DNA from: a virus
Lineage: Duplodnaviria; Heunggongvirae; Uroviricota; Caudoviricetes
Reading direction: 5' to 3' (one strand)
Length of the DNA stretch: 30,105 nt
Virus record (IMG/VR): IMGVR_UViG_3300006151_000006
Coordinates: 64,001 to 94,105 of that record
A program made the position numbers and the translations under genes. Positions within the stretch are counted from its first letter, which is position 1, and the number at the start of each line of letters is the position of its first letter. The notes below the pieces were generated by a model. It did not search any database and was not told the origin of the DNA. It saw only the letters and a list, made by a program, of their open reading frames with translations. This document shows positions 9,743-18,098 of the stretch, one piece after another.

Positions 9743-12700
9743 ATGGCAAAGAAACTAAAGGTCGTAAAGAAGACAATTGAGTCTTTGGATGAACCTTGGT
9801 GCGACCCTGATGCGGGAACGTGCCATGACATCGAAGACATTGAAAACTTCATCAAGGCCCAGTTTGAGAAAGCAGCCTCTGATTTGAATGATGGACTCTC
9901 GAAAAAGCCATCTGTATTCAAACGCTCTCAAGAAAAGGGTGCGGACAACTGCTATCACATTTATGGGTTTGCCTCTGAAGAAGACTATCTCAACTGGAAT
10001 TCTGACCCTGACACATACGCAGAATTGCTATTGTCAGATGTTTCGCTGCCTGATACCGGTGGCGGCTCATCTGCTGTCAGCTATATTGTTTCGCTATTGC
10101 GTGAAACAAGCGGTGATATTGTGACGATTGACAATACGGTGAAACTGAATGTCAAATTCACATCACAGGAATTCAACCCAATTGATCAATCGACTAACGA
10201 CACTCAGGAAGGTGGCGTAATGACTGTGCAAACTCGATTGAATGAATCGGCACAATGGACGACCAAAGGAACTATCAATATTCCTTATATCCCCAGTGAT
10301 TCTGATAAGTGGTTTGAGGCAGACCTTACGTCCATGATGGCAAGTGGCCGTCAACAAGTGCGTATCATCGTCAAAGGCGAAACCACTGAGTTGAGCACAC
10401 GCTATTTGAGCTTTTGGGTTACAAGGACTACTCTTGGCTTGCAGCTTTCAACACTTTGGGAGCAACCAGTGACTGATGGAGTATTGCGATTGGGGTACTA
10501 TATCAATGGAGCGGTTGCCAAAACACTTCATGTACTGATTGATGGAAAGCGTAAAGTAGAATTCCCTCTCGGTTTGACAACTTACACCCAGACACCTTAT
10601 CAGTGTAGTATATCAGATACAGATGATGAGCCTAACAAAATCATCACACATGGGGTACACACTGTTCAGGCTTGGCTTTCTGTCAATAATTCTGATGTCG
10701 TTAGTGAGACGCTAACATCACAGCACATGATTGTCACAGATCCGGCTGATACAACACCAAGGTTGCTACTCAATGATCTAAAGCAATCCATCACGAACTG
10801 GACTACAGAACAGCTTTTTACATACTCACTTTATAATCCGTCGGGTCAGGCATTGCCATTGAAACTTGCTTTGATGAATTATGCCGGAACTGAAAATTAT
10901 ATGACACTTGACCTTGGCGAAGTTACGCCTAATGAACGCCGAGCACTTATCAATGTCATTGAAATTGAGTCCGATGAAGTGAGCATTGATGCTTATATGC
11001 GTTTCTTGTCAGGCGAAACCGAAATTCACGAAATGATTGGCTTTTCAGTGGATAACACTGAGAACTTTGCTCCGACAGCTGGCTATGGGATGGCGATTAA
11101 CCCTCGTTCTCGTACAAATGACGAAGTTAATCCGATGTCTATTATCAACAGTGTTACTGGTGAAATTGTGCCATCGGTTTGGAAGAATTTCGGACTTGTT
11201 ACGGATGGCTGGATTACCGATGAAGATAATAACAAATGTCTTCGTCTCCCTTCTGGCACATCTATCGACATAGATTATGAAACCTTCAAAGATTACATTG
11301 GTACAGATAATCGTCGCTCACTAACCATAGAGTTAGATTTTGCAAGTCGCAATGTCACGGACGAGAACAAGCCTGCTTTGAGAATGTGTTCATATATGCC
11401 CGATGAAAAGCCTCTTGGTTTTGAATTGCTTCCTATTAGTGGACGCTTCCTAACTCAATCGAATCGTAGTGTTGATGATCAGGACGTAGGCTTCTTGCGA
11501 GACAAGCGTACACATCTGATGGTCAATATTGTGTATGGCATCAACGGCTCGTCGGTCAATATGGTGCGAATATTTGTAAATGGTACTTGTTCTCGTGAAT
11601 TTACATGGGAAACATCCGATGTATTTGTGCAGTTTGTGGATGGTGTGCGTACATCGCAAGGTATTCGCCTTGGGTCTGTAGGTACAGACATAGACATCTA
11701 TAATCTTCGTATCTACCATACTGCGTTGTCGTCATCTGATGTGCTTCAGAATTATATGGCATCGCAAGCGAGTGTGTCGCAGAAATTGGCTATCCGTCAA
11801 GCAAATGATTTGCTGGGTGATGATGGCCGGATTTCTTATGCAAAAGCTCACGAGAAATACCAAACGATTTGTTGGTGTATCGACGAAGGTGCTCACCTCC
11901 CTGCTTATGGAGATACTAAGAAATACGAAATACTTTCTCCTGTAACCATTATTGGTCGTAAAACCGCTGATGGATTTAAGGATGAGTTTTTGTATAACTG
12001 GTTCTTGCTTGGACAGGGCACGTCTTCAATGACCTATTTTGGTTGGAACATTGCAATGAACCCCAAGACCAAAAACCATAAAGACGATGCAGTATTAAGC
12101 AAAGTCAAGGGTACTTGGGTTGATATTCATGGAGTCGAACATAAAAGCGTCTATGCTTTGAATGATGGCGATCCTGAAGCAGCTAAACTTGTGGCAAAGG
12201 CAAACTGGGCCTCTTCTCAGCAAACACACAAGATGGGCTCTGTTAATGCTTTCAATGATTTGTGGAAAGCAGTCACTGGTGGCTCGACTATGACAAACAC
12301 TCCGGGTTACGAAAATTGCCGAGTATCGGTCAAACAGGAAGAATTCCTTGGCTTTGTTAAAATTGGCGATAATGAGCCTGAGTTTTTTGGGCTTTACACA
12401 TTTGGTCCGGGTAAGGGTGATAAGCCAACTTTTGCCTGTGATATGGATAAGTTTCCCCATTATTTGATGCTTGAGGGTTGCGACAACGGTCAGCCTCTGA
12501 CCAATCACCGCATCCCTTGGAATGATGACATCCAGCCAGATGAAGATGGTGAAATCTATATGTTCAATGGTGGTAAACAATGGGAAATCTGTCTCGGTTC
12601 GGCCGATAACGTAAGCTATTTCCGCAGTGCTTTCAACTTTGTATATCTGAATTCACCTCATATCCATCCGTTTGTTGGCAAACTGTCTGAACTTCAAAAA

Positions 12701-15700
12701 TCTCAGTCAGTTAATAACCAGCATTTTTATTGGGTAACACAGTCTGGGGATGGAGCTGCGCAATATGACCTATTCCGTTATGATGTGTTGACAGGGCAAT
12801 GGGTTGATGCTGGCGTTAACAAATTGGGCGATGGTCAGTATGCAAAACTTAATATGGTTACTGACTTGGGGGTCACTCCGGTATCGAATGTATGGGAAAC
12901 GGTTAATGAGCAATTCAAGACTGCTCGTGTGCAACGATTCAGAAATAATGCTCATCTGTATTTTAAGCGTGACGATGCTCTATATCATCTATGCTTTGTG
13001 CTCTTGATTGCGGCAACTGACAACCGAGCTAAAAATACATACTTGTATTTGGATTATTACGAGGGCCGCATTGTCATCCACTTTGCCCAAGATGACCTTG
13101 ACTCCATCAAGAAAACAGATAATGAGGGGCGTTTGAACAAACCGTACTACATTGAAACACACGACCGTAACGCAGACAATATGCCTTACTGGAATGGTGA
13201 AGAAAATGCTATGTATGACTTGTTTGAGTTGGCTTTCCCTGATGAAATGCGCTCAATGATGCGCTCGATACTGACAGCGATGGCATCATTGGCCTCTCAG
13301 CAAGGCGCAATTATGGAGGCGAATAGTGACCCATTGATGCAATTCATGGAGAACTATTACTACCGCATTGCTCGTTCAATTCCAGCTGTAGCATACAATG
13401 AGACAGCTCGAATTCGTTACGAGACAGCAGCTATTGCATGGCAACAGGGCAAATATGTGGCTTCAGTTCATCCGCTTGCCCAGTCACTCGGCTCTCAGTT
13501 GGAGAATGAGCTGGAATGGATGCGTCAACGTCTAATCTATATTTCATCGTATGCTTCCTACGGACAATTCTCGATGAATGGACAAGGCTCGTTGACATTC
13601 CGTTCTGTAAAGATGTTGAGTGGCGAAAACCCAACATACGATTTCGATCTGACTCCAGCATTGTGGCTCTATCCGGCAGCAAGCTCAGGTTCGTCAACAT
13701 ACTTTGGTACAGGAAATTCGCGTCCTGTTCGTGTTAAGGCTGGCGAGGTCTTTAGGCTTGCCGGTATTCCTTCTGATGGCAATACCAACATTCAGCTACA
13801 TGGCATTGACTACTACACCAATATTGGTGAATTTGGTAATAAACCGCTTCAGGGTGAGGCCTTTGGTATAGCCGGTGAACGATTGACAGAATTTGTCGCC
13901 TCTGCTATGCCAGCAGAATTTAGACCTCCCAAAGTTACTGCCACTGCACCAATGTTGCGTAAGATTGATTTGCGGAATCGAGTTTCTGTAACCGGTGCTT
14001 TGGATTTCTCTGCACAAACACGCTTAGAGTCATTAGATGCTTGGGGGACTTCTATCACACAGTTTATGGTTGGCGATCCGACTAAGATTACCAAATTGTC
14101 TTTGCCTGCAACATTGACTGCCTTATCAATGGAAAATTACACCAATCTCGATACTGAAAATTTTGAGATTGAAGGAGTTGCGCATATTCAGACTCTGACG
14201 TTCCATAATTGTCCAAATCTGAACAGCCAGCAACTGATAACCAGTTTGTTGACTGAGGATGGTTCTCAGTTAAGCAGTTGCAAGATTGACAACATTAACT
14301 GGACCAACTTCTCTATCAACAACTTGATGAAACTGGTGGATATAGATTCTGATTTGGAAGGCTATATTGAAATCAACTCAAGCCATAACTTGACTTTTGA
14401 GATGAAACAAAAGATTTTGGCAAAATGGGGCGATGTTGATAAAGAAAACAACAAGCTACGGCTGAAATACACTCAGCGTCCTTTACAGAATGTTAGCGTT
14501 GTCGGTCAGAAATACTTCGATAAGACAGGCACTTATCAATTGAAGGTACAGCCAAATTCCAATAATGCCAACAAATTCTCAGCAATTCGTTGGGCGATGA
14601 CAAATAATGGTTATGCTACAATTGACTCCAAGACTGGTATAGTTACAGTTACGAAAGTTGGCACTGAGGAGCAAGAGCCCATCGCTCAAATCACAGTGAC
14701 CGTTACTTTGACAGATGGAACAGAGGTTTCTGATACTGTGACCGTAGGTTTCTATCATAGGTCTTGTAAATTAGGTGATTATGTATTTGCTGACGGTTCA
14801 TACTCTAATGTGCTGGATCGTTCTAAGACAGTAGTAGGTATTTGCTTCTATATTGACAGGAAAAATCCGCAAAACCGTTTGGCCGTTGCATTATCAGATG
14901 TGTCAACTGGTATTCAGTGGGGATTGTATTTCAACAATACAACCACTGATCAGAACTGGATAGAAGGTAGCGCAAATGACTTGAATTACAATATTCGAGA
15001 TATAGAACTGGACGATACATTGAATTATGATGTTTATGACATACCTACAATTCAAAATATCACCAGTCGTGGCTTAACGACATTGGATGGTAAGGATAAT
15101 GCGTATATCACAGCTGAAACATTTCGCGATGAAGAATACGGTGATGAAGATGGATTTAAGATAATGAGTCCTACTACAGCAATGGGCGATATGGGCTTTC
15201 AAGAGCTTCGATCTCCTATCGCTGGGTATAAGGAGGGTGAAATAATTTCAAAAAGTTTATTGAAAACTTTACAAATTATTGAGCACCGCAACATCATATT
15301 GAATGACTCTGCGGTGAACCTTCCAGTGCCTTATGTGGGTGACAAAATGACTGAAATGGAGCACCTTAATCAGTTGATGTTAAATATTGTTAACGATTTG
15401 GGTGCTGCAAAATACCGTCAATTTTATTACCCAGCGGCTTCACTTTGTCACAGTTATCAGCCTGCGGTTAAAACCGACGAGGAGCTTTCTCCACTATTCT
15501 TAGCCGGTAAGTGGTCATTACCCTGTGAAGGCGACTTAGCTCGTTTGTGCTGGTTCCATCGCTGTGGTTACGAAGTTGGCGATGAAGGCGCGATCTTCGC
15601 TCAGGGACGAGTGGATGGAGTTTTTACAGCATTCACGAACACTTGGTACTGGAGCGCATCTGAGCTCAGTCGCTACTACGCATGGTACGTCTACTTCTCG

Positions 15701-15766
15701 GATGGCAGCACGTACGGCGGCAGCAAGTACGGCAGTAGCCGGGTTCGTGCAGTTGTCGCATTTTGA
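9743..15766 (+). CDS. DGR target: 2007-aa multidomain tail-associated/receptor-binding protein (LamG-like, CotH-kinase-like, LRR-like, Ig-like, C-terminal C-type-lectin-fold variable region)
   Basis: The last 110 bp match the TR with adenine-only mismatches. The C-terminus YWSASE...AWYVYF..G......SRVRAVVAF is the CLec-type DGR target signature. Internal domains were recognised from motifs only. Confidence 0.9.
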   Translation: MAKKLKVVKKTIESLDEPWCDPDAGTCHDIEDIENFIKAQFEKAASDLNDGLSKKPSVFKRSQEKGADNCYHIYGFASEEDYLNWNSDPDTYAELLLSDVSLPDTGGGSSAVSYIVSLLRETSGDIVTIDNTVKLNVKFTSQEFNPIDQSTNDTQEGGVMTVQTRLNESAQWTTKGTINIPYIPSDSDKWFEADLTSMMASGRQQVRIIVKGETTELSTRYLSFWVTRTTLGLQLSTLWEQPVTDGVLRLGYYINGAVAKTLHVLIDGKRKVEFPLGLTTYTQTPYQCSISDTDDEPNKIITHGVHTVQAWLSVNNSDVVSETLTSQHMIVTDPADTTPRLLLNDLKQSITNWTTEQLFTYSLYNPSGQALPLKLALMNYAGTENYMTLDLGEVTPNERRALINVIEIESDEVSIDAYMRFLSGETEIHEMIGFSVDNTENFAPTAGYGMAINPRSRTNDEVNPMSIINSVTGEIVPSVWKNFGLVTDGWITDEDNNKCLRLPSGTSIDIDYETFKDYIGTDNRRSLTIELDFASRNVTDENKPALRMCSYMPDEKPLGFELLPISGRFLTQSNRSVDDQDVGFLRDKRTHLMVNIVYGINGSSVNMVRIFVNGTCSREFTWETSDVFVQFVDGVRTSQGIRLGSVGTDIDIYNLRIYHTALSSSDVLQNYMASQASVSQKLAIRQANDLLGDDGRISYAKAHEKYQTICWCIDEGAHLPAYGDTKKYEILSPVTIIGRKTADGFKDEFLYNWFLLGQGTSSMTYFGWNIAMNPKTKNHKDDAVLSKVKGTWVDIHGVEHKSVYALNDGDPEAAKLVAKANWASSQQTHKMGSVNAFNDLWKAVTGGSTMTNTPGYENCRVSVKQEEFLGFVKIGDNEPEFFGLYTFGPGKGDKPTFACDMDKFPHYLMLEGCDNGQPLTNHRIPWNDDIQPDEDGEIYMFNGGKQWEICLGSADNVSYFRSAFNFVYLNSPHIHPFVGKLSELQKSQSVNNQHFYWVTQSGDGAAQYDLFRYDVLTGQWVDAGVNKLGDGQYAKLNMVTDLGVTPVSNVWETVNEQFKTARVQRFRNNAHLYFKRDDALYHLCFVLLIAATDNRAKNTYLYLDYYEGRIVIHFAQDDLDSIKKTDNEGRLNKPYYIETHDRNADNMPYWNGEENAMYDLFELAFPDEMRSMMRSILTAMASLASQQGAIMEANSDPLMQFMENYYYRIARSIPAVAYNETARIRYETAAIAWQQGKYVASVHPLAQSLGSQLENELEWMRQRLIYISSYASYGQFSMNGQGSLTFRSVKMLSGENPTYDFDLTPALWLYPAASSGSSTYFGTGNSRPVRVKAGEVFRLAGIPSDGNTNIQLHGIDYYTNIGEFGNKPLQGEAFGIAGERLTEFVASAMPAEFRPPKVTATAPMLRKIDLRNRVSVTGALDFSAQTRLESLDAWGTSITQFMVGDPTKITKLSLPATLTALSMENYTNLDTENFEIEGVAHIQTLTFHNCPNLNSQQLITSLLTEDGSQLSSCKIDNINWTNFSINNLMKLVDIDSDLEGYIEINSSHNLTFEMKQKILAKWGDVDKENNKLRLKYTQRPLQNVSVVGQKYFDKTGTYQLKVQPNSNNANKFSAIRWAMTNNGYATIDSKTGIVTVTKVGTEEQEPIAQITVTVTLTDGTEVSDTVTVGFYHRSCKLGDYVFADGSYSNVLDRSKTVVGICFYIDRKNPQNRLAVALSDVSTGIQWGLYFNNTTTDQNWIEGSANDLNYNIRDIELDDTLNYDVYDIPTIQNITSRGLTTLDGKDNAYITAETFRDEEYGDEDGFKIMSPTTAMGDMGFQELRSPIAGYKEGEIISKSLLKTLQIIEHRNIILNDSAVNLPVPYVGDKMTEMEHLNQLMLNIVNDLGAAKYRQFYYPAASLCHSYQPAVKTDEELSPLFLAGKWSLPCEGDLARLCWFHRCGYEVGDEGAIFAQGRVDGVFTAFTNTWYWSASELSRYYAWYVYFSDGSTYGGSKYGSSRVRAVVAF
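15653..15762 (+). repeat. DGR variable repeat (VR)
   Basis: Ungapped 110-bp alignment to 16394-16503 with 16 mismatches, all opposite TR adenines in AAC codons; invariant 3' segment cgggttcgtgcagttgtcgcatt. Confidence 0.97.
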
Positions 15767-15775
15767 AATCGGTAC

Positions 15776-15799
15776 GCCCGGCTCCTTCCAGAGCCGGGC
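15776..15799 (+). promoter_or_regulatory. GC-rich hairpin/cruciform downstream of VR (DGR target-recognition element; may also act as a terminator)
   Basis: Perfect 9-bp stem gcccggctc / gagccgggc with a 6-nt loop cttcca, starting 10 nt after the target stop codon. Confidence 0.8.
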
Positions 15800-15852
15800 T
15801 ATAAATACCGGAATATCTATATTGTTTTGCAAATCGTTGGCACACAACATAT

Positions 15853-15860
15853 TATCTTTG
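15853..15860 (+). promoter_or_regulatory. Possible Bacteroidetes housekeeping promoter -7 box (TAnnTTTG) upstream of avd
   Basis: tatctttg at 15853-15860. A tttg at 15826-15829 is 23 nt upstream, slightly longer than the usual spacing. Confidence 0.35.
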
Positions 15861-15862
15861 GT

Positions 15863-16258
15863 ATGAAACACCAATCTTCACAAACTCCTGTATATAGATT
15901 GACGGAACGACTTATGATTCTTTCAATTCCGATGATTAGTCGTCTCCCGAAATCGACTCCCTATCAAGTTTTGGGAGGTAAGTTTATAAGTAATGTAAAT
16001 GATTGTTTGGACATCATTTCAATTGCTTATGGACTTGACAGAAATTCAGCAACATATATTACCGCTCGTAAAGAATGTCATGGAAACCTACACCTACGCT
16101 TGACATCATTGAAAACAATGGTGCGCGTCTTTAAAAAGGTGAGGTTTACTAATCATAAGGGAGACTTGATTCCTGTAGTTTCGCCACGACATGAGGGTGA
16201 GTTTGTTGACTTAGTGAACCAAATCAGCGTCCAAATAGACGCATGGCTTGGGCGATAA
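15863..16258 (+). CDS. avd: DGR accessory variability determinant (Avd-like four-helix bundle)
   Basis: About 131 aa, basic and helical, with VY......RLPK..Y.LG and a terminal QI..W; sits between VR and TR. ATG at 15863 preferred; frame open from 15827. Confidence 0.8.
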   Translation: MKHQSSQTPVYRLTERLMILSIPMISRLPKSTPYQVLGGKFISNVNDCLDIISIAYGLDRNSATYITARKECHGNLHLRLTSLKTMVRVFKKVRFTNHKGDLIPVVSPRHEGEFVDLVNQISVQIDAWLGR

Positions 16259-16520
16259 AGTTGTCGCAGTGCTTCATATTACATAACTAAGGTTGTGGAT
16301 ATTAATAATCTCTTATCATTGAATGGGTGTGGCACAGAGTTACTGAGAAATCAGGACTTTGTTACGACGAAAATTAGCCACATGACTGCGCGTAGCGCAT
16401 CTGAGAACAGTCGCAACAACGCATGGAACGTCAACTTCTCGGATGGCAACACGAACAACAACAACAAGTACAACAGTAACCGGGTTCGTGCAGTTGTCGC
16501 ATTAGATGCGGAGATTAAGG
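16259..16520 (+). ncRNA. Putative DGR template RNA (structured leader plus TR); ends uncertain
   Basis: A nested stem-loop with a GAAA tetraloop at 16328-16382 lies directly upstream of the TR. DGRs are known to use a TR-containing RNA. Confidence 0.55.
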
Positions 16521-17785
16521 AAGGTTGGGTGGTTGCCAAAGATGATTGTTGTGCCAATAAATATTCTACTTCTCAATGTGAAGAATGGCGCATGATTGAG
16601 AACTGGGAATTGTGGAATCTTATGTATGAGATATACTACGGAGACTACAAACCCACTACATCAACATGCTTCATCGTAAAGTTCCCATCATTCAGGGAAA
16701 TCTTTGCAGCAGCGTTTCGTGATAGGGTTGTTCAGCATTGGATTTGTCTAAGGCTGAACCCTCTATTTGAAACCCGCTTTTTCTTACAGCACAACGTATC
16801 TTTTAATTGCAGGAAAGGCTTCGGGACTTTAAGAGCAGCACAAGCCCTTAAAGTTGATATGGAGTATATGAGTGATATGTGGACGAAAGATGATGTCCAT
16901 GTCGGAAGATTTGACATTAAGGCTTTCTTTATGCACATTGACCGCAATATTCTTTGGGCCTTACTGGAGCCATTTATCAAGGAGAATTATCACGAGAAGG
17001 ATCTTGATGTCTTGCTTAGATTGACGAAACAGCAAGTATTTCATTGCCCTCAGGATGATTGCATTAGGAAATCGGACATCCGCATGTGGGATTTCCTACC
17101 ATTTCACAAGTCTATGTTTAATAGACCGAGACACTTTGGTATGGCGATCGGGAACATTCTCAGTCAATTGTGTGCAAACTTCTACTTGTCGTTCTTTGAT
17201 GCGATAATGTTGAAATTGTGTATGAGATATGGCTGTTGTTATAAACGATTTGTCGATGATTTCACTATCGTAGGTAGTAAAGAAGCAATCTTGAAAATCC
17301 GAGCCATTGCTGAAAGATGGCTCAGCCTGTATCTCCATCTGACTTTGCACAGAGACAAATTCTATCTCCAGAAAGTATCTCACGGCTGCAAATTTGTGGG
17401 AACAACAATTATGCCTCATAGAACATATTTGGCAAGCCGTACTTATGGCGGAATGCACGATCAAATCTTTACATTGGCAGCTCTTTGTCGTTCTATCGCC
17501 AATCGTGGAGCTACCTTGAGTAAATTGAAGCGATTGCAGAACGAGGTATCTTCAATGAATTCTTACATTGGTTTCTCAGTTCATCATCGTTCATTTCAGA
17601 TGCGCTCAAAACTCTATAAACCCTATCTTGAAGACATTCGCAAGGTTTGTGTATTAAACTCTGATATGGGATTTGTAAGAATTAAGCGAAAATATGACTA
17701 TCAACAACAATTAATACGCAAGGAGGAACTTAGATATGAATATCCAAACTGGAACTACGAAACCGGAAGCAGTGACCTTCGTTAA
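16382..17785 (+). CDS. DGR reverse transcriptase (start uncertain: GTG 16295, ATG 16382 or GTG 16529)
   Basis: Motifs REIFAAAFRDRVVQH, DIKAFF, GMAIGNILSQLCANFYL (DGR-type SQ), RFVDD and KFVG; adjacent to TR and avd. Confidence 0.93.
   Translation: MTARSASENSRNNAWNVNFSDGNTNNNNKYNSNRVRAVVALDAEIKEGWVVAKDDCCANKYSTSQCEEWRMIENWELWNLMYEIYYGDYKPTTSTCFIVKFPSFREIFAAAFRDRVVQHWICLRLNPLFETRFFLQHNVSFNCRKGFGTLRAAQALKVDMEYMSDMWTKDDVHVGRFDIKAFFMHIDRNILWALLEPFIKENYHEKDLDVLLRLTKQQVFHCPQDDCIRKSDIRMWDFLPFHKSMFNRPRHFGMAIGNILSQLCANFYLSFFDAIMLKLCMRYGCCYKRFVDDFTIVGSKEAILKIRAIAERWLSLYLHLTLHRDKFYLQKVSHGCKFVGTTIMPHRTYLASRTYGGMHDQIFTLAALCRSIANRGATLSKLKRLQNEVSSMNSYIGFSVHHRSFQMRSKLYKPYLEDIRKVCVLNSDMGFVRIKRKYDYQQQLIRKEELRYEYPNWNYETGSSDLR
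16394..16503 (+). repeat. DGR template repeat (TR)
   Basis: Contains 12 in-frame AAC codons and is identical to the VR at every non-adenine position. Confidence 0.97.
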
Positions 17786-18098
17786 GGTAGTTGGAATTAA
17801 ACAGAGGACAATTAATTTCGATGTTCAAGAGAAAGAAGATGGCTCATTTGAATGGGTCAGCGCAACTCTTGGATTAGGAGTATGGAACTATGGCGCAATT
17901 GTGACTGCTATTATTTACGCAAAATATAGTTCAGACCAGATTGAGGCTATTAATTCTAATATGATGCAGCTAATGCTTGATGCTACTTCAGTTCCGGAAG
18001 ATAAAGCAAAGGAATATCGTAACGAAGCACTTGAATTGCAGGCGTGGAGAAATCACGCTAAGGAATTGGCCAAGGAATATCTTGAATGTAAGCGGTAA
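17736..18098 (+). CDS. Phage tail-module protein (possible fibre-assembly chaperone)
   Basis: 120 aa ending ...ELQAWRNHAKELAKE, a type often seen after Bacteroidetes phage fibre genes. AGGAGG at 17721-17726 precedes the ATG; the gene overlaps the RT end by 50 nt. Confidence 0.65.
   Translation: MNIQTGTTKPEAVTFVKVVGIKQRTINFDVQEKEDGSFEWVSATLGLGVWNYGAIVTAIIYAKYSSDQIEAINSNMMQLMLDATSVPEDKAKEYRNEALELQAWRNHAKELAKEYLECKR

Follow-up and report, generated by a model that had tools for sequence, protein, structure and literature searches.

A very probably active DGR of the BPP-1 kind with two target genes and its template repeat inside the reverse transcriptase frame in a phage of mouse-gut Bacteroidales

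The question raised by this locus is whether a cassette that has all the parts of a DGR still diversifies its target genes, or whether it did so only formerly. To our knowledge, no natural system other than DGRs hypermutates chosen proteins in microbes, and the phages of gut Bacteroides carry many of these elements. We analysed a stretch of 30,105 nucleotides (the window, positions 64,001 to 94,105 of IMG/VR record IMGVR_UViG_3300006151_000006), in which a target gene ending in a variable repeat (VR1), an avd gene, a template repeat (TR) and a reverse transcriptase (RT) gene follow one another on the plus strand. The cassette is preceded by baseplate hub and tail genes and followed by Baseplate_J-like genes, all on the same strand, in agreement with a sequence-only reading that had described a complete, apparently functional DGR embedded in the tail operon. 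Every part named in that reading is present, and population contigs now back the claim of function. It is very probable that this is an active DGR of the BPP-1 kind, with two targets, in a myovirus-like phage of about 100 kb from mouse-gut Bacteroidales. The class of element is already well known and the principle gains little from a further member, but the locus is an unusually clean natural example, and its lineage has features of its own in that the TR lies within the RT gene and is immediately preceded by a conserved, hitherto undescribed RNA stem-loop.

VR1 (positions 15653 to 15762, plus strand) and the TR (16394 to 16503, plus strand) were recovered by a repeat search as a single direct repeat of 110 nt with 85% identity. 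A recount of the alignment agrees exactly with the one first reported: all 16 mismatches fall on TR adenines (nine A>G, six A>T and one A>C), and VR1 keeps an adenine at each of the 13 TR adenines that are not part of an AAC codon. With 37 adenines among 110 positions, the probability of such a distribution by chance is 1.8e-9. Read in the frame of the target, the TR has 12 AAC codons, all 12 of which are changed in VR1, and the mismatches are confined to the first two positions of these codons. They yield about 12 hypervariable residues on a putative DUF1566/C-type-lectin-like surface, presumably a ligand-binding site. Related loci show the same pattern, with VR/TR mismatches at adenines in 18/18 (L016), 10/10 (L020), 16/17 (L005) and 16/18 (the cultured phage BS-TP1) cases, and in 16/16 and 14/15 cases in one strain from a metagenome-assembled genome.

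VR1 is the 3' end of an open reading frame (positions 9743 to 15766, plus strand) that encodes a 2007-aa protein of the baseplate/tail-fibre module. Its C-terminal domain, which bears VR1, is probably of the DUF1566/Lcl_C (C-type-lectin-like) type; Pfam Lcl_C matches residues 1905–2004 below the gathering cut-off when the whole protein is searched (E 2.2e-6), and the C-terminal part alone gives E 5.5e-7 over model positions 24–116 of 117, with 30.3 bits against a cut-off of 34.9. The protein also matches PHROG family phrog_24896 (1e-101), whose function is unknown, and has syntenic counterparts of 1995–2187 aa in L005, L016 and BS-TP1.

The 3' end of VR1 was said to hold an invariant G/C segment, of which the invariance stands and the composition does not: the 24 nt at 15739–15762 are constant in every VR copy, the positions seen to vary lying within 15665–15738, but they have 58% G+C and are not a pure G/C run. 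Beyond the shared GCATT the two repeats part as reported, VR1 continuing with TTGA and the TR with AGAT. Together with the 13-nt VR-specific flank that contains the stop codon (15763–15775), the constant segment makes up an IMH-like region at 15739–15775 on the plus strand. A GC-rich hairpin or cruciform (15776–15799, plus strand) begins 13 nt past the end of the VR/TR homology, and folding gives the 9-bp stem that had been proposed, 15776–15784 with 15791–15799, closed by a 6-nt loop, CTTCCA. It lacks the T-tract that would follow a typical intrinsic terminator, and its stems are preserved by compensatory changes in L016, L005, L004 and more distant relatives.

A second variable repeat, VR2, lies 44 kb away and outside the window, at genome positions 35771–35880 on the opposite strand, in the gene for a 227-aa protein of probable lectin fold (target 2) that is not part of the tail module. 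Over the 105 homologous nucleotides 10 of the 12 mismatches between VR2 and the TR are at adenines. The 3' element and hairpin are those of VR1; from the VR1 3' end through the flank and hairpin, to about position 15814, the two differ by one base in this genome's VR2, while the TR diverges after GCATT. The two non-adenine changes, one of which is within the invariant 3' segment, suggest that this particular copy of VR2 may have lost its quality as a target. Target 2 matches Lcl_C/DUF1566 with E 7.9e-4, again under the gathering score of Pfam, and three of its relatives have precomputed PF07603 assignments. A PDB match of its C-terminus to 8q4e, 'HbP1' (E 0.006), was set aside, and a literature search on HbP1 returned nothing. 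A genome-wide self-comparison found no further adenine-biased repeat family. The function under selection would be receptor binding or host range, in line with the tropism switching proposed in the sequence-only reading. Target 2, however, lies outside the tail module, and this is of interest for a question still under study, namely what leads phages to diversify two different proteins (PMC10743442).

The avd gene (positions 15863 to 16258, plus strand) encodes 131 aa, and direct searches of Pfam, PHROG, NCBIfam and PDB sequences found no match to the product, nor did profile searches of the PDB with Avd alignments find any Avd; from the Atlas came no more than a weak lead to bAvd. A profile search, in contrast, brought in 48 distant relatives, and 12 of 37 aligned members match Pfam PF22296, bAvd. 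A first structure prediction from 10 close relatives (pLDDT 57) led to an uninformative fold search and was superseded by one from the 37-sequence alignment, which reached pLDDT 94.4. The top 19 Foldseek matches to this model are Avd-family bundles (2gsc, 4dwl, chains B–E of 8ub7, 8ub8 and 8ube, and 2rld), with probability 0.95–1.0 and TM of about 0.52–0.83. Despite the lack of a direct family match, the intermediate sequences and predicted fold thus identify the protein as a divergent, bAvd-like four-helix-bundle accessory protein, and the claim of an intact avd is borne out on these grounds.

The RT reading frame (positions 16295 to 17785, plus strand; 496 aa) matches RVT_1 (3.1e-8) and phrog_1423 (2e-47). 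Its best match among solved structures is the BPP-1 bRT (8ub7, E 5.5e-11), in which IGSLTSQ and YMDD align with IGNILSQ (17147–17167) and FVDD (17249–17260). Its scores against models of group II, retron and DRT enzymes stay under the respective cut-offs, and the nearest phage RTs are those of Bacteroides DGRs. With its IGxxxSQ and FVDD motifs the RT is intact, as had been claimed; what was overlooked is that the frame takes in the TR, as codons 34–70, together with a structured element at its 5' end, with the RT core beginning only at about residue 100.

Whether the cassette has been at work was judged from assembled contigs of four independent mouse-gut studies, so that the variation described here is variation between samples. 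In all four, target gene 1 differs from the window inside VR1 only, and each VR1 is different; the status of the cassette can thus be raised from an intact BPP-1-type DGR to a recently active one. Among the variable positions listed, 24 of 24 correspond to TR adenines (P about 3e-15); a further 27 rows of differences fall outside this listing. In runs X5, X6 and X10 the TR is identical to that of the window while VR1 differs at 13–20 positions, and a 926-nt contig carrying avd and the TR shows no differences in these three of the four studies. Between samples, then, the VR is hypervariable at TR-adenine positions against an invariant TR. Contig breaks at the VR were considered as a sign of heterogeneity and rejected: neighbouring contigs share k-1 nucleotides where VR1 and VR2 have their common repeat, and the VR1/VR2/TR repeat explains the breaks. 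The X10 contig end on the VR2 side is listed as identical to the window's VR1, which may be a reporting artefact and was left out of account. No RNA run was found to contain the locus. A megablast of the cassette against deposited phages gave no match, and exact-pattern scans gave none either, whether of viral contigs with the TR and the VR1 and VR2 5' flanks or of metagenome contigs with the shared VR 3' element, perhaps because near-identical records are absent from the sets scanned.

We consider it very unlikely that the cassette is an inactive relic, which formerly diversified VR1 and left differences that are now old and fixed. Such a reading could draw on the fact that the window is a single genome, on the two non-adenine substitutions in its VR2, and on signs of decay elsewhere, since the RT frame is split in one natural strain (L006) and some TRs have lost adenines. 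Fixed differences do not, however, agree with VR1 copies that differ at 13–20 adenine positions between samples in which the flanking 353 nt and the following 926 nt are identical, nor with L016 and L020, which have identical TRs and yet different VRs. Target 2 argues in the same direction: 69 distinct sequences fall in one 90% cluster, and in 18 natural variants that were aligned residues 1–194 are near-invariant and variation is found mainly at AAC-encoded positions and a TAC codon. The RT, avd and hairpin, moreover, are intact and conserved. Less probable again is that a second RT (genome positions 31614–32870), only about 3 kb from VR2, rather than the cassette RT, diversifies VR2. That enzyme belongs, over its full length, to RT_UG27 (E 1e-224), another class of RT; it shows no relationship to the cassette RT (E 0.15), no TR accompanies it, and VR2 matches the window's TR and shares the 3' element and hairpin of VR1; as a candidate second DGR the UG27 gene was rejected. 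The least credible proposal, to which we give almost no weight, is that VR variation reflects ordinary diversifying selection or allele recombination and that the TR is a decayed gene fragment. Receptor-binding tips are often under diversifying selection, and VR1, VR2 and the TR are repeats able to recombine (compare L019), but neither process would restrict dozens of independent differences to the adenines of a third, invariant copy, and the TR itself, adenine-rich and with 12 AAC codons, is conserved in relatives.

The active element that we favour would work as follows. A transcript bearing the TR (16394–16503) would be copied into cDNA by the element's own RT, aided by the divergent Avd, and template adenines would be read at random during this synthesis. 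The copies would then serve two targets, VR1 in the adjoining 2007-aa tail/baseplate protein and VR2 in the distant lectin-fold protein. We infer both the cDNA intermediate and a role of the hairpin and 3' segment in targeting.

Directly 5' of the TR, and also within the RT frame, is a conserved stem-loop element of about 75 nt (positions 16318 to 16393, plus strand). It comprises an AATGGG motif, an outer stem (16327–16333 with 16377–16383), an inner stem-loop (16334–16362) and an unpaired stretch (16363–16376), and the same fold is found in 12 relatives. In the MAFFT column alignment some rows have the outer stem 2 nt out of register, and anchor-based and model-based tests were therefore used. 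When arms were swapped between relatives, each of the two stems showed 6/6 pairing of its cognate arms in 12 of 14 cases, and none of 20,000 permutations reached the observed total. Pairing is kept in 83.9% of cells, compared with 67.2% after shuffling, and in 10 of the 12 pairs both partners have changed. A first model, R1, drawn up from close relatives alone, proved too dependent on sequence, so a second, R2, was used instead; it matches 19 of 19 loci in the clade and gave no hit among the 66 other sources searched, and a search of Rfam gave no match to the element. The element is clade-specific in this search and probably belongs to the template RNA. For a long-range duplex around the TR, similar to cPRT Stop and suggested by RNAalifold as 12 bp, no support was found, as cognate arms scored 8.7 of 10 and non-cognate arms 8.8 across 12 relatives; the sequence 3' of the TR codes for protein.

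Translation through the TR is the reading that we prefer for this layout. The competing view is that the RT starts downstream of the TR, at an unusual or unseen start codon, and that the TR and 5' element are an untranslated leader whose frame is open by virtue of a stop-free TR and of chance or RNA constraints upstream. This is a possibility of some substance, though an unlikely one. In its favour, the 12 codons preceding the TR have no third-position bias (2 synonymous versus 33 non-synonymous differences) and residues 15–21 are hypervariable; the LNG[CR]xT peptide motif coincides with AATGGG and the outer stem, so that RNA constraints can account for it; and the TR lies in a short separate frame in L027 and in an ORF separate from the RT in the Bacuni phages. 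Against it, there is no in-frame ATG, GTG or TTG from the start of the TR to the first residues after it, where the coding signal is already clear, and no stop codon interrupts the frame across the TR in 11 of 12 related loci, whose RTs are as little as 40% identical, or in the annotated BS-TP1 coding sequence. A start codon stands about 7–10 codons ahead of the LNG[CR]xT motif in nearly all relatives, with GTG in the window and ATG in L016, L017 and L018 occupying the same alignment column. Third-position bias, finally, is seen in residue 71 onward and also in residues 2–14, which have 31 synonymous and 12 non-synonymous differences.

Since the 5' element and TR are inside the RT frame, one RNA might be both the messenger for the RT and the template, and this would couple translation of the enzyme to use of the template. 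Tentatively, and with less than even confidence, we suggest that the element may be a lineage-specific module of such a dual-purpose RNA, replacing functions of the BPP-1 3' spacer such as cDNA positioning, priming or stopping, or the binding of Avd and RT. The clade-wide placement of the TR in the RT gene, the covarying upstream element and hairpin loops outside the GRNA consensus suggest that the rules of RNA and DNA recognition worked out for BPP-1 are not universal, which is relevant to the prediction of DGR targets and to the engineering of DGRs taken from Bacteroides phages; these points can be tested in BS-TP1, a relative that is in culture on B. salyersiae. The phage has been sampled in six mouse-gut studies, with a constant template, a variable region that is different each time and two target genes, and so clean a natural example should be a good system in which to follow DGR dynamics in a laboratory animal.

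Among the closest known systems is the DGR of BPP-1 (mtd VR, avd, TR and brt), and the assignment of the present cassette to that architecture holds for its parts, adenine pattern and hairpin, but not for the hairpin loops, the TR inside the RT frame or the number of targets. The order of target VR, avd, TR and RT is the same, mutation is adenine-only, and the VR is at the 3' end of a gene for a C-type-lectin-fold tail protein; in both, an invariant 3' segment is followed by divergence of TR and VR and by a GC-rich hairpin just downstream of the VR. The bRT in 8ub7 is the best structural relative of the RT and the predicted Avd fold is as in 4dwl, although the two RTs have very little sequence identity and direct sequence searches miss the Avd. 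The IMH of BPP-1-type elements, at the 3' end of the VR, consists of (GC)14 and of a 21-bp element whose VR and TR versions are not the same (Guo et al. 2011, PMC3240598). Here a 24-nt segment constant in TR and VR, with no 14-nt G/C run, is followed by 13 nt that are the same in VR1 and VR2 and unrelated to the TR; by analogy of position these are a plausible counterpart of the IMH, but the defining sequence features differ. BPP-1-type targets have a GC-rich hairpin of 7–10 bp at 4–34 bp downstream of the VR (PMC3240598), and the 9-bp stem at a distance of 13 nt falls within both ranges. The loop of those hairpins has 4 nt with the sense-strand consensus GRNA (PMC3240598), whereas the sense-strand loops of the window and its relatives have 4–6 nt and are T/C-rich (CTTCCA, TTTTC, TTTTCA, TTTC, TTCC and TTAA); they do not fit GRNA, and a GRAA-like sequence is found on the antisense strand instead. 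In BPP-1 DGR RNA, sequences upstream and downstream of the TR pair into a duplex around it (cPRT Stop), and a stem-loop follows at its 3' side (Handa et al., bioRxiv 10.1101/2023.10.23.563531); such spacer elements 3' of the TR were not found here, where the structured element is 5' of the TR and the 140-nt TR-RT spacer of BPP-1 is absent. The target domain of BPP-1 is of the Mtd type, and here two targets are probably of the DUF1566/Lcl_C type.

Among Bacteroides phages, Bacuni_F1, F2 and F4 of Bacteroides uniformis (PMC8143477) have two DUF1566/C-type-lectin targets, one adjoining the cassette and one distant, with VRs in about the last 35 residues, the order VR target, Avd, TR-containing ORF and RT, and RTs 34–36% identical to that of the window. 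They differ in being siphoviruses of 40 kb with the TR-containing ORF annotated apart from the RT, where here there is one frame, and in having targets described as fimbrial-tip-like (PMC8143477), where here VR1 is in a 2007-aa baseplate-module protein. BS-TP1 (PQ571274.1, 111.7 kb, host B. salyersiae) is of the same genome size class and has the same gene order, with a protein of about 2187 aa, a four-helix-bundle protein, a 493-aa RT and baseplate genes. The TR lies inside its annotated RT coding sequence, and it has a 10-bp hairpin and the 5' RNA element, although its RT is only 36% identical; no paper on the DGR of BS-TP1 was found in the literature. The 'group 3' architecture of Schillinger et al. 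(2012, PMC3521204) was defined by annotation only, whereas in the lineage described here the overlap of TR and RT frame is complete and conserved across the clade, with a conserved start codon and a covarying RNA element.

A repeat search of the window returned a single 110-nt direct repeat, in which the variable repeat (VR1, 15653-15762) and the template repeat (TR, 16394-16503) are 85% identical. All 16 mismatches fall on TR adenines (nine A>G, six A>T and one A>C), which has a probability of approximately 2e-9 by chance given the 37 adenines among 110 positions. The mismatches are confined to codon positions 1 and 2 of the TR's 12 AAC triplets, none of which is left unaltered, and the 13 TR adenines outside these codons are the same in VR1. 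VR1 closes the ORF of target 1 (9743-15766, 2007 aa), whose C-terminal domain matches DUF1566/Lcl_C slightly below the Pfam threshold. Over 11081-13699 of this gene Pfam returned no family at E up to 1, and the protein's other matches, to BspA-type LRR, Long Rib and CBM-like domains, are weak. The TR and VR1 diverge 3' of GCATT, and a hairpin with a 9-bp GC-rich stem and a 6-nt loop is predicted by folding at 15776-15799, with no T-tract 3' of it. The sequence-only reading had reported this 110-bp alignment, the 16 mismatches at adenines, the 13 unchanged adenines, the divergent ends and the 9-bp downstream hairpin, and our recount was identical on each.

The RT of the cassette, which that reading considered intact, matches RVT_1 and PHROG 1423, and scored under the cut-offs of the group II, retron and DRT models. 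Among solved structures its closest match is the BPP-1 DGR RT (8ub7, E 5.5e-11), with IGNILSQ opposite IGSLTSQ and FVDD opposite YMDD of bRT. In a natural strain with a 99% identical avd (L006:559-2049), the RT ORF is broken into pieces of 220 and 233 aa, and that cassette is likely inactivated. The avd product (15863-16258, 131 aa) gave no matches in Pfam, PHROGs, NCBIfam, PADLOC or PDB sequences and has only ten close relatives, to which an exhaustive profile search added 48 more distant ones. Pfam bAvd PF22296 recognises 12 of the 37 members of the aligned family. An AlphaFold model built on this alignment (pLDDT 94.4) is a four-helix bundle with a short beta-hairpin, and its top 19 PDB fold matches are all Avd-family bundles, including 2gsc, 4dwl (BPP-1 Avd), chains B-E of 8ub7/8ub8/8ube, and 2rld. 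The PF22296 matches in relatives and the predicted fold identify the 131-aa protein as a divergent Avd, in agreement with the earlier claim of an intact avd.

A third copy of the TR lies 44 kb upstream of the window on the minus strand (VR2, genome 35771-35880), where it closes a 227-aa lectin-fold protein, target 2 (genome 35767-36450, minus strand; L002:1497-2180); comparing the full 94-kb genome with itself revealed no further adenine-biased repeat. VR2 differs from the TR at 10 adenines and at two other positions, AGT>AGG and GCA>GGA, which are private to this phage's copy, one of them inside the invariant 3' segment. The stop codon, 13-nt flank and hairpin 3' of VR2 are all as for VR1, and identity between the two VRs extends approximately 50 nt past the end of TR homology, while their upstream sequences are unrelated. 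The shared 3' element fits the rule of BPP-1, in which targeting requires only the VR 3' end and the sequence beyond it (PMC3240598). Target 2 adjoins an M42/M28-like peptidase gene outside the tail module. A full-length RT_UG27 gene (genome 31614-32870, minus strand; L021:1614-2870; E 1e-224) lies 3 kb from VR2 and was rejected as a second DGR; it is unrelated to the cassette RT and has no TR. Two-target phage DGRs with one remote target are already known from the Bacuni phages (PMC8143477) and from cases in PMC10743442.

Natural variation was examined by comparing the assembled contigs of different samples over 15300-16700 in four runs from four studies. In the contigs that include the 3' part of target 1, 13 to 20 positions differ from the window, and the VR1 sequence is distinct in each of the four samples. 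Among the difference rows listed, beside which 27 further rows exist, 24 of 24 positions lie within 15665-15738 and all correspond to TR adenines (P ~3e-15). The contig spanning avd and the TR has 0 differences from the window in three runs. In related cassettes, VR/TR mismatches lie at adenines in 18/18, 10/10, 16/17, 16/16, 14/15 and 16/18 cases, and two of these loci from different samples (L016 and L020) have identical TRs and different VRs. Eighteen natural variants of target 2 hardly differ across residues 1-194, and their variation is mainly at residues encoded by AAC in the TR and at the TAC codon; one 90% cluster of this protein holds 69 distinct sequences. Contig breaks at the VR were discarded as a sign of heterogeneity, as the repeat itself accounts for them. 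The related cassettes, the contigs of four studies and the target 2 variants together argue that the element, an intact DGR, has evidently been active recently; the earlier description of a complete, apparently functional DGR is supported.

Changes within the TRs themselves are at adenines only: the TRs of the related loci L017 (628-737) and L018 have 8 and 12 such differences from the otherwise identical TR of L016, run X12 has AAC>TTC at window 16448-16449, and A>T occurs at TR position 13 of the 99%-identical strains. These changes suggest VR-to-TR conversion, or homing that occasionally strikes the TR by mistake; if so, the diversifying capacity would erode. In the 1187-nt contig L019 (1-1187), the usual place of target 1, immediately 5' of avd, is taken by a gene of the target 2 type (70% identical to target 2) together with its VR and hairpin. 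Either the inverted VR/hairpin copies, which lie 44 kb apart, have recombined to give an inversion isomer, or the contig is a chimera joined via that repeat. A 43.8-kb contig from run X10 reaches from VR1 to VR2; its own VR1 has 20 differences from the window, and its VR2-side end is reported, at window 15658-15774, with 0 differences from the window's VR1, reflecting either copying between VRs or a scoring artefact of the record's second piece.

The TR forms codons 34-70 of the RT ORF (16295-17785), in the same frame as the VR. This layout is present in all close relatives, in 11 of 12 loci at RT identities of 40-85%, and in the cultured Bacteroides salyersiae phage BS-TP1, where the TR is likewise within the annotated RT CDS. 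The start codon, GTG in the window and ATG in L016, L017 and L018, occupies one alignment column, and nearly all relatives have a start approximately 7-10 codons 5' of a conserved motif. Third-position excess, a coding signal, is seen at residues 2-14 and returns immediately 3' of the TR, where there is no in-frame start. From the conserved start and this coding signal, the RT is quite probably made with an N-terminal extension of approximately 100 residues that includes an Asn-rich peptide encoded by the TR. Pfam assigns residues 4-67 of the ORF to the end of an Lcl_C domain, which suggests that the TR originated when the 3' end of a target was copied and became fused to the RT. A TR overlapping the annotated RT ORF is a listed DGR architecture, group 3 (PMC3521204), and the layout is therefore not new in kind.

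The sequence before the TR evolves unlike coding DNA, residues 15-21 of the RT ORF being hypervariable and residues 22-33 conserved in nucleotide sequence but showing no bias towards third positions. The approximately 75 nt 5' of the TR share one fold in all relatives, consisting of AATGGG, a 6-7-bp outer stem, an inner stem-loop closed by AC...GT, and 12-14 unpaired nt (GTTAYGA...) on the 3' side. For each stem, 12 of 14 sequences show 6/6 pairing of their cognate arms, although 12 distinct outer and 9 distinct inner arms occur among them; exchanging arms between sequences gives 6/6 in only 21% (outer) and 7% (inner) of cases, and none of 20,000 permutations matched the observed total. A covariance model built on these sequences found a single site per locus in all 19 loci of the clade, non-seed loci among them, always on the RT strand and just 5' of the TR wherever the TR was mapped, with no match in the other 66 sources searched. 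In the model-based alignment 83.9% of cells are paired versus 67.2% in shuffles, and 10 of 12 pairs are altered on both sides, with slid controls much lower. Rfam contains no match, and this is a previously uncatalogued RNA element common to a clade of Bacteroidales phages. In BPP-1, the flanks of the TR in the RNA are essential and wrap around the RT-Avd complex; the elements described there are a duplex of upstream with downstream sequence and, 3' of the TR, stem-loops (bioRxiv 10.1101/2023.10.23.563531). A BPP-1-style duplex bracketing the TR is unsupported in this phage and its relatives. The 5' element is most simply read as a lineage-specific part of the template RNA, though it may act in RT translation.

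The IMG/VR record (94,105 bp, approximately 85% complete), of which the window is the final 30 kb, has minus-strand genes up to approximately 56 kb, among them those for an NAD ligase and an O-like replication protein. The structural module that starts at 56.5 kb is on the plus strand and comprises portal, protease, tail sheath and baseplate hub genes, followed by the cassette and then Baseplate_J-like genes, which bears out the placement of the DGR in the tail operon. A 120-aa ORF (17736-18098) overlaps the RT stop by 50 nt, keeps its position in all relatives (102-120 aa) and has no family match, and BS-TP1 encodes a DUF4376 protein at this site; it could be an extra cassette-associated gene or the first baseplate gene. 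The phage is present in mouse-gut metagenomes from six studies. Its nearest genome relative (RT 85% identical) is found in a mouse-gut Bacteroidales MAG as a contig of 202 kb, remoter relatives are in assemblies of Muribaculaceae and other Bacteroidales, and BS-TP1 (111.7 kb) has the local gene order of the window; these relatives make a Bacteroidales host likely.

Compared with BPP-1-type targets, the hairpin stems (8-11 bp, GC-rich) and their spacing from the VR are within the published range, but the loops are T/C-rich and 4-6 nt long and do not match the sense-strand GRNA tetraloop, so that GRAA-like sequences lie on the opposite strand. The sequence-only reading had also described an invariant 3' G/C segment; the segment is invariant but, unlike that of BPP-1, lacks a (GC)14 run. 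The class of DGR is already known, and what characterizes this element within it is a divergent Avd, two targets, a TR within the RT gene and the RNA element of its clade.
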